From Sumerlaeia bacterium (GTDB taxonomy: Bacteria; Sumerlaeota; Sumerlaeia; SLMS01; JAHLLQ01): a stretch of 64,000 nucleotides of DNA. The notes beneath the pieces were generated by a model. It saw only the letters and a program-made list of their open reading frames with translations. It searched no databases and was not told where the DNA came from. Below are positions 301 to 6,477 of the stretch, in pieces; the stretch's first letter is position 1, and every line of letters begins with the position of its first letter. The stretch is from assembly GCA_040219255.1 (NCBI GenBank), contig JAVJSW010000012.1, forward strand, positions 64,001-128,000, given 5' to 3'. The position numbers and the translations under genes are program-made.

Positions 301-3765
<3,465 letters not shown>

Positions 3766-3818
3766 GGTGTTCTCCTGCCGGATTCGTCCGGCGCTCTTCG
3801 TCGATTGGGGTCAGGGTT

Positions 3819-4367
3819 TCAGACAGCGGGGAGAACCGTGCGGCCGGCGGCGTCGATGGCGACGCCTTCGCGTTCGAGAAGCCAGCGCTTCATTTCCAGA
3901 CCCCCGCCGTAGTTGCCCAGCGAACCGTCGCTGCGCACCACGCGGTGGCACGGAATGAGAAGCGGGAGAGGATTGCGCGCCATCACACCGCCGATGGCCC
4001 GGCTGCCCTTGGGATTGCCGACCGCTTTGGCCAGTTGCCCGTAGGAGCGGACTTCCCCGCGGGGAATGGCGGCGCAGGCTTCGGAGACTTCACGGGCGAA
4101 GGGCGTCAGCTCGGGCCACACCATTCGTTCCCGCAAGTCTTCGAAACACCCCGAGCCATCGCAAGCCTTGGCCAGCAAATCCGCCAGCTCCAGCGATTCG
4201 CGGGTTCTTACGAACCGGAAGCGCTCGCCGGGGCGGGTGGCTTTTTCCAGCGCGGCGTTGGCTTGCCCCATGGTCAGGGGTGGCAGCCAGAGGGCCACGA
4301 TGGCTCCCTCGCGGCTGGCGACCAATCCTTCTCCGAACGGCGTCTTGAAGACGCTGCCGTCCAGCAC
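3819..4367 (-). CDS. ogt: Methylated-DNA--protein-cysteine methyltransferase
   Basis: IPRGEVRSYGQLA, NPLPLLIPCHRVV active site, KRWLLEREG; GTG start at 4367 chosen (SD-like AGGTG just upstream) instead of the track's 4643. Confidence 0.92.
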   Translation of the reverse strand: MLDGSVFKTPFGEGLVASREGAIVALWLPPLTMGQANAALEKATRPGERFRFVRTRESLELADLLAKACDGSGCFEDLRERMVWPELTPFAREVSEACAAIPRGEVRSYGQLAKAVGNPKGSRAIGGVMARNPLPLLIPCHRVVRSDGSLGNYGGGLEMKRWLLEREGVAIDAAGRTVLPAV

Positions 4368-4371
4368 TTTG

Positions 4372-4794
4372 TCACCTGGGATTGGGCGGACCACGGCGCT
4401 TGAGGGGCAGGTGCCCGGGTTCGAGGGGACGAACGGCGCTGGCGGCGTCGGGCGAACCCTGGGCGGCGTTGGAATGGAAATTCTGAAGGGAGAACGATTT
4501 GGGCCGCGCGTGACCGCTGAAGCAGCGGGGAAAGGGCGAGGGCGTTCGCTTCTGCGTCTCTTCGCGGGACTCGGTGGCCGCCTGCACCAGAACGGCTTCC
4601 ACGATCTTGCGCTGACGCTCGCCCATGGCGGCTCGGACTTCACCCCGCGCGTAGGGCATCCACCAGTCCGCCGCCCGGCCGGGCCCGGGTGTGACGCAGG
4701 TCGCCGCCAGCGGCAACAGCATCACCAGCACCATCGGCGGAATGCGCCGGTGTGTCGCGGAGGAGAAGCTGGTGCGCTGGTCGCTCTGTGCCAT
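4372..4794 (-). CDS. Putative secretion-monitor leader protein (hydrophobic N-terminal segment, C-terminal RGPP)
   Basis: 140 aa; RRIPPMVLVMLLPLAATCVT near the N-terminus; ends LKRRGPPNPR*; stop lies 4 nt before the ogt start; TTGACA on the minus strand at 4827-4832. Confidence 0.6.
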   Translation of the reverse strand: MAQSDQRTSFSSATHRRIPPMVLVMLLPLAATCVTPGPGRAADWWMPYARGEVRAAMGERQRKIVEAVLVQAATESREETQKRTPSPFPRCFSGHARPKSFSLQNFHSNAAQGSPDAASAVRPLEPGHLPLKRRGPPNPR

Positions 4795-4962
4795 AGGGAC
4801 CCACAAGACGGTCAGAAACCGCGTGATGTCAAAGGAAAGTGCCAGTTGCGGGCCAACCGCCAAAGACCTTCGATTCAGCCATTCCAGCTTGCCCGCTCCA
4901 ACCGTCTGCGGTTCAATCGCATTTGCCTCTCGATTTTTGAAAACCCAGGAAAGGGCTCCGCT

Positions 4963-6477
4963 TTGACTGCCTCCTCCCTGACGCGACAGACCTTACTCGG
5001 ACTCATGGCCTCCGTTTTGGCGGTGCCGCTCCTGGCCCAATCGCCTCCCCGCGGCCTCGTCATCATGGCCCAGGGCGAAGGCCTGCGGAGCACCCGCGAA
5101 GTGTCCCGCCTGGTCGAAAACATCGCGCCCGTGGCTTTTGACCAGCTCATCCTGGAAGTGCGCGGCTACGACGGTACCCTCTACGATTCCGATCTGGAAC
5201 CCCGCGCCTACGCCACCAGCCCCGGCGCCCCGGAGGACCCGGTGCGGGCTTTGGAGGACGCGCTGACCGATGACGGCCGCACCTCCGCTGCGATCTGGCT
5301 CCTGATGGAAACGCTGCCGTCCTACGATGCCGAGTTCACTTCCCGCCCGCCGGAGGGCTCGACCATGGACCGCCTGAGTAGGGCCACCATGTTCCGGGCC
5401 GACGGCGAGAAGCTGACCAGCGAGCGCCTGATGCTGCTGGACCCGGGCGTGCGGGCCACTCAGGAGCACCTGCTGGCCATGATCCGCGAAGTGGCCGAAC
5501 GCTACCAGCCCCCCGGTATCGTGCTGAACGGCATCGCATTCCCGAGCGCCGAATGGGGCTACAACGCGCAAAGCATCGCCGCCTTCCGGGCGGCCGTGGG
5601 CGGCGTGGGGCCGCCGCCGCCGGACAATGGCGTCTGGATGGTCTGGCGCCGAGAGGTCCTGACCTACTTCCTGCGTCAGGTTGACGAAATGCTGGCCGAA
5701 GTGTCGCCCGACACGCGGCTCGGCGTGATTGTCAGTGCGGAAGGTCCGGCGCCCAGTTCCTGGGCCGAATGGGAAGCTTCCACCGCCTATCGCGACCGGC
5801 TGCAAGACTGGGTCGGTTGGGCCGAGGAGGGTCTGGTGGACGTGCTCTACGTGAGCCGGCCGACACGCCCAGGCCTGGAAGAGGAGTACGAATTCAACGA
5901 GTGGCTGGATTTCGCCCGGGCCCATTCCTACGGGGCGAAAGTCACGGCCTGGATCGACGCCGAATCGGCCATTCCGGCGGATCTGATCGGGCGCCTTCGT
6001 GGAGCCCGCCGGCGGGGCGCGGGCGTGGCTTTGTCCCATTACGCCAAGCCCGCTCGCCAGGTCCTCAACGATTACTTCGAGCAAATGCTGCCCGGCGCCC
6101 TCGGCGTCAGCGCCGCCGTGGTCCGCCCGGACGAACCCTTCGAACACCAGCGCCGCCGTCCAGACTTCAGCCGCGTCACGACTCCGCCACCGTCGCTCGA
6201 TCCCACACCCACGCCGACCCCCACCCCCACTCCGGAACCCCTTCGCCGCACCCCGGCGCCGACGCCAACGCCCGACCTCTTCGATGCCCCCCCACCGCCG
6301 CCGCTCCTGGAGCTGAATCGCCAGACGCAGCGCATCGTCATGAAAAACGGACAAATCATCGAAGGCGTCGTCGTCCGTCGCGATGACCTGCGCGGAACCT
6401 TCCGCGTCCGTCTCGACAACGGCACGATGCTGACCCTTGAGGACGCCCAGGTTGAATCCCTCTCCCCCCTGGAGTGA
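4963..6477 (+). CDS. GHL10/YddW (DUF187)-like TIM-barrel secreted protein with Pro/Thr linker and small C-terminal beta domain
   Basis: Signal peptide; LDPGVRATQEHLLAM, WMVWRREVLT, QDWVGWAEEGLVD resemble GHL10 motifs; PTPTPTP linker; TTG start after AGGAAAGG (ATG 5005 is an alternative). Confidence 0.75.
   Translation: MTASSLTRQTLLGLMASVLAVPLLAQSPPRGLVIMAQGEGLRSTREVSRLVENIAPVAFDQLILEVRGYDGTLYDSDLEPRAYATSPGAPEDPVRALEDALTDDGRTSAAIWLLMETLPSYDAEFTSRPPEGSTMDRLSRATMFRADGEKLTSERLMLLDPGVRATQEHLLAMIREVAERYQPPGIVLNGIAFPSAEWGYNAQSIAAFRAAVGGVGPPPPDNGVWMVWRREVLTYFLRQVDEMLAEVSPDTRLGVIVSAEGPAPSSWAEWEASTAYRDRLQDWVGWAEEGLVDVLYVSRPTRPGLEEEYEFNEWLDFARAHSYGAKVTAWIDAESAIPADLIGRLRGARRRGAGVALSHYAKPARQVLNDYFEQMLPGALGVSAAVVRPDEPFEHQRRRPDFSRVTTPPPSLDPTPTPTPTPTPEPLRRTPAPTPTPDLFDAPPPPPLLELNRQTQRIVMKNGQIIEGVVVRRDDLRGTFRVRLDNGTMLTLEDAQVESLSPLE

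Follow-up and report, generated by a model that had tools for sequence, protein, structure and literature searches.

An open reading frame (ORF) of 140 amino acids on the minus strand of a 64,000-nucleotide (nt) stretch of DNA from a Sumerlaeia bacterium (assembly GCA_040219255.1, contig JAVJSW010000012.1, positions 64,001 to 128,000 of the forward strand; the window in what follows) probably encodes a translation-arrest peptide of the RAPP class. The peptide is predicted to be a monitoring substrate of the Sec pathway and to head an ORF-ogt-secA operon in one order of, probably, the Sumerlaeia. The probability of this reading is put at about 0.78; arrest, release by export and the effect on secA are its predicted parts. 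The protein is small, has an N-terminal localisation signal followed by a long spacer, and ends in a conserved R-G-P-P motif. By these features, together with a place directly upstream of secA, the RQH peptides were recognised bioinformatically (PMC10987492). All are found here, except that the ORF is usually not adjacent to secA, and it is therefore read as an arrest peptide that would be released by the pull of export. The features of the ORF are as follows.

4372-4794, minus strand: candidate RAPP-class arrest peptide and Sec monitoring substrate ORF (evidence: translation, GC content of third codon positions (GC3), orthologues).
4678-4743, minus strand: hydrophobic segment I18-G39 (IPPMVLVMLLPLAATCVTPGPG) with HRR ahead of it, a signal-anchor or uncleaved signal (evidence: hydropathy, AlphaFold2 (AF2) model, conservation).
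4606-4620, minus strand: E59-K63 (ERQRK), the E/D-R-x-R-R motif of the family, in a predicted long helix (evidence: alignments, AF2).
4384-4395, minus strand: R134-G-P-P137, predicted arrest motif, codons CGT GGT CCG CCC (evidence: invariance).

The ORF is protein-coding. It runs from an ATG at 4794 to a TGA at 4374-4372, and its product begins MAQSDQ, contains HRRIPPMVLVMLLPLAATCVT and ends LKRRGPPNPR; the length, the ending and the position of the RGPP codons (4384-4395) are those given in the original prediction, which was made from the window alone. The coding status follows from the frame-specific GC3, 0.82 in this ORF against 0.84 in secA. GC at the first and second codon positions is 0.67 and 0.59, and the periodicity spans about 4830 to about 4470. 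A longer version starting at a TTG at 4863 is unlikely, since it would take in the TTGACA box described below and all 24 aligned orthologues begin at an ATG, 17-30 residues ahead of the hydrophobic segment.

The ORF lies upstream of secA in all 25 genomes of the order, in 24 of them found by profile and in one by eye. A single-sequence search of 40 relatives gave weak matches only (best foreign E 6.7e-5), several of which sit just upstream of the (ogt-)secA genes of these relatives, and it is this synteny alone that makes them interpretable. When the stop-to-stop frames upstream of ogt-secA were compared, a common build was seen in all 18 loci with enough flank: an ATG start, 128-148 residues, a basic stretch, a hydrophobic segment with P-L-A-A-(S/T)-C, a variable tail, RGPP (15 loci) or RAPP (3), then one to seven residues and the stop. 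Pairwise identity to the window protein is 17-30% and the mean column identity of the family alignments 21-32%. The invariant columns of the 18-locus alignment are M1, P28, L29, R60, R134, P136 and P137. A profile built from this alignment has one match per genome in 24 of the 25 genomes (E 4e-14 to 3e-36), including six orthologues outside the profile, which all have R[GA]PP and a spacer of 94-110 residues. The remaining genome, G012 (80% complete), has no profile match; in the same place it has a divergent ORF of 167 residues from the first ATG with MVLPLAAG, a 107-residue spacer and the end HPRAPPVFRTNA (RAPPVFRTNA before the stop), overlapping the ogt start. Outside the order, the other 48 genomes of the class gave two weak profile matches only (E 0.003-0.005), none of 50 genomes of the phylum outside the order has a match at E<=1e-3, and none of nine loci from class-level relatives outside the order has an ORF with a transmembrane segment and RxPP upstream of secA. 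A profile search of 1.84 billion cluster representatives returned 56 proteins; one is that of the window, and the other 55 all carry the motif near their end (RGPP 43, RAPP 12). The pooled and de-duplicated family comprises 76 distinct sequences; its profile-found members are 106-178 residues long (some N-terminally cut), within the limit of 300 residues without annotated function used for RQH peptides, and one member bears the source name "hypothetical protein [Sumerlaeia bacterium]". Profile and domain searches gave no Pfam, NCBIfam or PDB family for the ORF product or its family.

The only long-range invariant of the family is R[GA]PP. It occurs exactly once in each of the 76 distinct sequences (RGPP 59, RAPP 17), one to seven residues ahead of the stop, and a conserved C-terminal R-G/A-P-P is likewise a mark of RQH peptides; these counts are partly circular among profile hits, the profile itself including the motif. 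The copies free of this circularity are those of the six held-out genomic orthologues and the G012 copy found by eye. The failure of the ORF or its motif to recur upstream of secA in relatives had been named beforehand as grounds for giving up the prediction, and both recur, the ORF in 25 of 25 genomes and the motif in 76 of 76 sequences. Among 24 genomic copies the motif is written with five Arg, four Gly, two Ala and all four Pro codons. Selection is on the peptide and not on the RBS (ribosome-binding site) of ogt, since the motif is also retained in the two genomes where no ogt follows (G019 and G023). Taken together, the synonymous variation and this retention mean that the motif is not a by-product of the ogt RBS or of an upstream extension of ogt.

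These results bear on the suspicion that the ORF arose by chance in GC-rich intergenic DNA, its RGPP coming from the 5' region of ogt or its RBS. Long spurious ORFs are indeed common at 66% GC, the ogt frame is open up to 4643, and the single-sequence matches are no better than E 6.7e-5. The upstream part of the ogt frame is, however, R/P/S-rich like an off-frame reading, and chance would have to account for the frame-specific GC3, for an ATG, length, helix, spacer and motif conserved in 25 genomes, and for a motif whose codons vary synonymously and which is kept where ogt is absent. A chance origin can practically be dismissed, and the original observation is confirmed.

The motif is also avoided elsewhere in the genome. 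In a proteome of 3223 ORFs from crude gene calls in the organism's own genome, three arrest-type tetrapeptides are depleted 3-7-fold against a composition-based expectation; below them are listed PPGR and PPAR, which are the first two words reversed, and AAPP.

RGPP: observed 9, expected 32.3, ratio 0.28.
RAPP: observed 8, expected 42.4, ratio 0.19.
RAGP: observed 9, expected 59, ratio 0.15.
PPGR: observed 35, expected 32.3, ratio 1.08.
PPAR: observed 49, expected 42.4, ratio 1.16.
AAPP: observed 93, expected 63.5, ratio 1.46.

Such avoidance is the pattern described for translation-impeding sequences by Fujiwara et al. 2025 (PMC12992588), and it suggests that the ribosome of this organism is sensitive to RGPP, RAPP and RAGP. 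None of the 3223 crude ORFs ends in R[GA]PP, the filter having dropped the present ORF for its second-position GC of 0.59. Among 7616 loosely coding-like ORFs of the genome six have such an end, and the present ORF alone has gene-like codon-position GC; no other gene-like ORF with a C-terminal R[GA]PP was found in the genome, for example before secDF or yidC.

The protein has a simple shape. As originally noted, its N-terminal part is basic and then hydrophobic: there is one window of transmembrane grade with a positive N-flank, the best 19-residue Kyte-Doolittle window having a median of 2.2 and the N-flank a median net charge of +2 in 67 full-length members. P28, L29 and A30 are invariant or nearly so, and AF2 places a helix at 20-34 in the hydrophobic segment. 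This corresponds to the N-terminal secretion signal or transmembrane segment that serves as the localisation signal in the RQH class. A lipoprotein reading was rejected; the Cys that frequently follows PLAA(S/T) is not invariant, so there is no strict lipobox. The spacer from PLAA(S/T) to the motif Arg measures 92-111 residues, well over the 30 required of RQH peptides. A single N-terminal hydrophobic helix and a spacer of about this length are retained throughout the 76 distinct sequences. Reported median spacers are 71-133 residues for Sec monitors and 54 for MifM (PMC10987492), and a spacer of about 100 residues thus fits the range of Sec monitors rather than that of YidC monitors.

Between the membrane segment and the arrest motif there is a single conserved feature, the E/D-R-x-R-R motif. 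It lies about 30 residues after the hydrophobic segment in all 18 loci with enough flank and is matched by a regular expression in 58 of the 76 sequences; R60 is invariant in alignment A1 (18 sequences) and R62 is conserved to at least 90% in each of the alignments A1 and A3. In the AF2 model, made with an input alignment of 59 of the 76 sequences (N-terminally cut ones and duplicates excluded), E-R-Q-R-K falls in a helix at 46-83 with a pLDDT (predicted local distance difference test) of 74-88. Residues 84-140 are unstructured, and the pTM (predicted template modelling score) of the whole model is 0.29. That the arginine cluster behind the anchor might make export dependent on SecA is pure conjecture.

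The conserved helix suggests constraint beyond that on a bare spacer. It could belong to a small protein that crosses the membrane once and has its own function, for instance a translocon accessory, in which R-G/A-P-P would serve for contact or processing and no regulatory arrest would take place. The family is single-copy and order-wide, as such a protein might be, and arrest at the motif is itself a prediction. Several properties speak against it nonetheless. Ahead of the motif the tail lacks both order and conservation, while the motif itself stands one to seven residues from the stop in every sequence, is avoided elsewhere in the genome, and is a tetrapeptide that stalls ribosomes in diverse contexts (PMC12992588, PMC10987492); the place upstream of secA is likewise that of the published class. 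A protein of this kind is thus very improbable.

The reading as an arrest peptide also draws on the genes around the ORF. The further features of the putative operon, in the order of transcription, are these.

4827-4832, minus strand: TTGACA, a -35-like box that ends 32 nt ahead of the ATG, candidate promoter for an almost leaderless transcript of ORF, ogt and secA.
4365-4377, minus strand: RBS of ogt, with the ORF stop TGA (4374-4372) in an SD-like (Shine-Dalgarno-like) AGGTG (4377-4373), a 4-nt spacer and the start GTG (4367-4365).
3819-4367, minus strand: ogt, O6-alkylguanine-DNA methyltransferase, 182 residues with PCHRV, second cistron (PF01035, E 3.1e-33).
3766-3818, minus strand: ogt-secA spacer of 53 nt with secA's own SD, GGAGAAC (3775-3769) (evidence: sequence).
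301-3765, minus strand: secA, 1154 residues, third cistron and presumed regulatory target (PF07517 and other Pfam SecA domains).

The same-strand order ORF-ogt-secA had been noted originally, as had the overlap of the ORF stop with an SD-like AGGTG and a TTGACA about 33 nt upstream of the ATG; each is present. The box is conserved. Of 23 loci, 21 have a TTGAC[AT] whose end is 20-40 nt upstream of the orthologous ATG (29-35 nt in 19 of them); the background among crude gene calls of the organism's own genome is 33 of 3214. In 21 of 22 loci the stretch from the ORF start to the secA start is free of TTGACA. The ATG of the ORF has no SD-like sequence ahead of it, and no -10 consensus is evident near the box. 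The conserved box about 32 nt before the ATG, the lack of an SD ahead of it and the usual geometry of promoters together suggest that the transcript starts within a few bases of the ATG as a near-leaderless mRNA, with the -10 element and the start site predicted from that geometry.

The gene ogt stands between the ORF and secA in 23 of the 25 genomes; one of these (G003) has the locus divided between two contig ends. Two genomes, G019 and G023, have secA directly after the ORF, with gaps of 121 and 126 nt. RQH peptides are required to be encoded directly upstream of secA, secDF or yidC in the same orientation; here the ORF and secA share a strand in 25 of 25 genomes, and the two adjoin in G019 and G023. 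The gap between ogt and secA is 53-247 nt in relatives, with an SD-like element in most. Outside the order, the class-level relatives G035 (locus L037) and G026 (locus L038) have the arrangement response regulator-ogt-secA without the ORF, and the linkage of ogt and secA is thus older or wider than the ORF.

The junction between ORF and ogt is tight. Most loci of relatives have an ogt start that overlaps with or directly adjoins the ORF stop (ATGA, ATGnTGA, TGAnATG). The window has TGAcaaaGTG, and its GTG at 4367 corresponds in the alignment to the ATG with which ogt begins in relatives. The P- and A-site codons at R134-G-P/P137 were assigned by analogy with ApdA and ApdP (PMC10951233). With the first base of the first Pro codon, the predicted P-site codon, as reference point, the ogt start lies at +5 to +23 nt in 19 of the 21 loci assigned; two assignments are uncertain (+28 and +41), and one locus has no assigned start. 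An SD-like word for ogt is present in 12 of 21 loci, mostly encoded by the residues right after the motif, and on the same count the ogt RBS of the window occupies +13 to +24 nt. By toeprint geometry a ribosome shields roughly 15 nt downstream of its P-site codon. A ribosome stalled at R-G-P/P is therefore predicted to cover the SD of ogt and to exclude initiation there, and one released from the stall would end on the ogt start, which is a layout for translational coupling.

From these parts the following course of events may be proposed. The mRNA would begin at or within a few bases of the ATG. The positively flanked hydrophobic helix at the N-terminus of the nascent chain would bring it to the translocon, with a spacer of about 100 residues behind it. 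At R134-G-P/P137 formation of the peptide bond to the A-site Pro would fail, the ribosome would stall, and while stalled it would cover the SD and start of ogt. Pulling on the chain by the export machinery would release the stall, and the freed ribosome would read one to seven further codons, terminate on the ogt start codon and feed ogt by coupling. When export is poor the stall would be long, and this would most likely raise SecA synthesis, either because the downstream mRNA refolds or because the mRNA is kept at the membrane and secA is meanwhile translated from its own SD.

Three regulatory outputs can be set out: a SecM-like induction of secA through long-range refolding of the mRNA; mRNA tethering, by which SecA would be synthesised at the membrane; and repression of ogt together with, by polarity, secA. 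The first two are favoured over the third on physiological grounds. The complete scheme, in which the arrested ribosome sits on the coupled SD and start of ogt, the leaderless transcript is held at the translocon, and occlusion combined with tethering or refolding switches expression from ogt to secA when export is slow, is tentative and more doubtful than not. If true, its logic of occlusion and tethering would differ from the SD-unmasking stem-loop of SecM, VemP and MifM, and it would explain why a DNA-repair gene is wedged between monitor and motor across a whole order.

The same junction could serve an arrest peptide whose output is repressive. Stalling would then block ogt, and Rho or mRNA decay would lower secA; or ogt alone would be controlled, with secA linked to it by old synteny. 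The ogt start at +5 to +23 nt from the predicted P-site codon and the common stop-start overlaps fit such a block, the end of ogt in the window can pair with the secA SD through a 7-bp anti-SD in a classic coupling layout, ogt and secA are linked outside the order without the ORF, and there is a precedent in CruR, whose stalling is said to cause Rho-dependent termination that prevents BfrG production (bioRxiv 10.1101/2025.02.05.636593). Yet the anti-SD pairing is not conserved, secA has an SD-like element of its own in most loci, and in two genomes the ORF directly precedes secA, at gaps of 121 and 126 nt, with no ogt. Less SecA upon failure of export would moreover be a positive feedback with no obvious use. 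A repressive output is accordingly judged unlikely.

The anti-SD is the 7-nt GUUCUCC at 3836-3830, in the last codons of ogt, a perfect complement of the secA SD GGAGAAC at 3775-3769, and the two pair in a 166-nt fold. As a conserved switch it was rejected: a shorter fold loses the pairing, and relatives show nothing equivalent.

A number of observations weigh against the ORF as a Sec monitor controlling secA. First, secA is two cistrons away from the ORF in 23 of 25 genomes. The SD and start of ogt would be covered by the stalled ribosome, as predicted above, and the classical mechanism, in which a stall unmasks the SD of the next cistron, therefore cannot apply. If coupling from ogt to secA or Rho polarity were dominant, a stall would lower SecA. 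Second, neither local nor long folds gave a conserved structure that hides the RBS of secA. The regions folded were the ORF end with the ogt start, the spacer between ogt and secA, and both loci that lack ogt; z-scores were -0.2 to -1.8 and no structure was shared, and the predicted accessibility of the secA RBS was 0.40 for "ogt naked" and 0.43 for "gap only" (Wilcoxon p 0.92, 21 loci). Third, a promoter scan with an E. coli-type consensus found no promoters, and RNA-library contigs do not cover 4000-4900, the region of the ORF, the RNA and DNA runs holding only small parts of the stretch; these read contigs prove neither transcription of the ORF nor its absence. Fourth, the members, all from a single order, are not independent of each other, the motif counts among profile hits are partly circular, and the topology was judged by hydropathy and AF2 only.

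The closest known systems are the uA_RQH groups (Fujiwara et al. 2024), then ApdA and ApdP, then SecM. RGPP and RAPP ORFs upstream of secA and secDF arrest the ribosomes of E. coli and B. subtilis; the peptide uA_RQH_Pseudomonadales, with R109GPP, has an fAP>0.9, and Arg and Pro substitutions abolish arrest in RQH-class peptides (PMC10987492). Arrest at RAPP and RGPP is described as robust and refractory to EF-P (PMC12992588). Like the RQH family upstream of secA, as that family is described (PMC10987492), the present one consists of small unannotated proteins with an N-terminal localisation signal, a spacer far above 30 residues and a conserved C-terminal R-G/A-P-P, encoded on the strand and in the operon of secA, conserved in one order and otherwise little alike. 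Unlike it, ogt intervenes in 23 of 25 loci, a ribosome at the stall site would cover the RBS of the next cistron and a -35 box is conserved at leaderless distance; no sequence relationship between the two is detectable.

ApdA of Actinobacteria and ApdP of Alphaproteobacteria, encoded upstream of secDF, share the localisation signal and the C-terminal R-A-P-P, which is the form of 17 of the 76 sequences here (PMC7897499, PMC10951233). Going by their descriptions, they are set apart by the downstream gene, secDF in place of secA, and by the predominance of RGPP here (59 of 76). A profile search of the PDB gave no match for the family. The copper-sensing peptides CruR and CutF (DUF2946) are also small and exported, with a C-terminal RAPP or PPP stall site and control of a downstream operon, and CruR shows that a stall can switch genes off through Rho as well (bioRxiv 10.1101/2025.02.05.636593). 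They sense copper by Cys/His motifs and precede metal-related genes, whereas the present family has no such motif and no DUF2946 match.

SecM of Gammaproteobacteria (RAGP) is likewise an exported or inserted monitor upstream of secA, with arrest near the C-terminus at a motif of the R-A/G-x-P type. It reportedly also has a second role in placing SecA synthesis at the membrane (Nakatogawa et al. 2005), a possible further likeness. The differences are that no stem-loop was found here that links the arrest site to the SD of secA, and that a DNA-repair gene is coupled in between. Membership of the SecM family was rejected, as none of 18 members matches any SecM model of Pfam or NCBIfam at E<=0.1.

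The original prediction had proposed a new secretion monitor and a candidate for an undescribed system. Conservation and build support the monitor; the system is not of an undescribed kind, RGPP/RAPP ORFs upstream of secA being a class already published (PMC10987492). The ORF represents a new family and an architectural variant within that class, and is not a new kind of system. The main texts of PMC10987492 and PMC12992588 mention no Sumerlaeota, ogt or methyltransferase, while their supplementary lists (19 RQH groups, orphan ORFs, all RGPP/RAPP upstream ORFs and the genes that follow them) may hold an entry. Full-text literature searches gave no paper on Sumerlaeota with secA, nor on Sumerlae* with an arrest peptide. 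The screen of 2024 took only hypothetical genes directly upstream of sec genes (PMC10987492) and would therefore skip 23 of the 25 loci here.

The family extends secretion monitors of the RAPP type to a barely studied phylum dominated by uncultured members, and it exposes a blind spot of screens confined to the gene directly upstream of sec genes, the monitor being two genes from secA. The layout is fixed across the order, with a box at leaderless distance, a predicted stall site 5-23 nt before the next start and secA as third cistron. This makes it a clean natural test of regulation by RBS occlusion or mRNA tethering as against the melting of a hairpin, and an invariant tetrapeptide in freely drifting sequence offers a compact model family for that test.

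The SecA of the window has an AMP-binding_C-like insert after its N-terminal helix (residues 77-151, window 3313-3537, minus strand; PF13193, E 8.9e-6). For most genomes of the order the SecA alignment extends across the insert; for class-level relatives it begins only at residue 192, and their SecA N-terminus is contiguous. A link of the ORF to this unusual SecA as its target had been suggested. It is not needed, and the insert was rejected as a requirement, G012 having a RAPP ORF and a SecA without the insert.

An RNA-library contig from an ice-metagenome metatranscriptome (266 nt, one mismatch) covers 3590-3855 and so spans the junction from the last part of ogt to the first part of secA. 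This hints weakly that the two genes are co-transcribed and that a close relative lives in that ice habitat.

On the other side of the ORF a divergent GHL10-like gene (PF02638, E 2e-14) starts at 5005 on the plus strand, and its product begins with the signal-like MASVLAVPLLAQ. The spacer between the two genes, 4795-5004, is about 210 bp long and lower in GC (0.56-0.63). It must hold the promoters of both.

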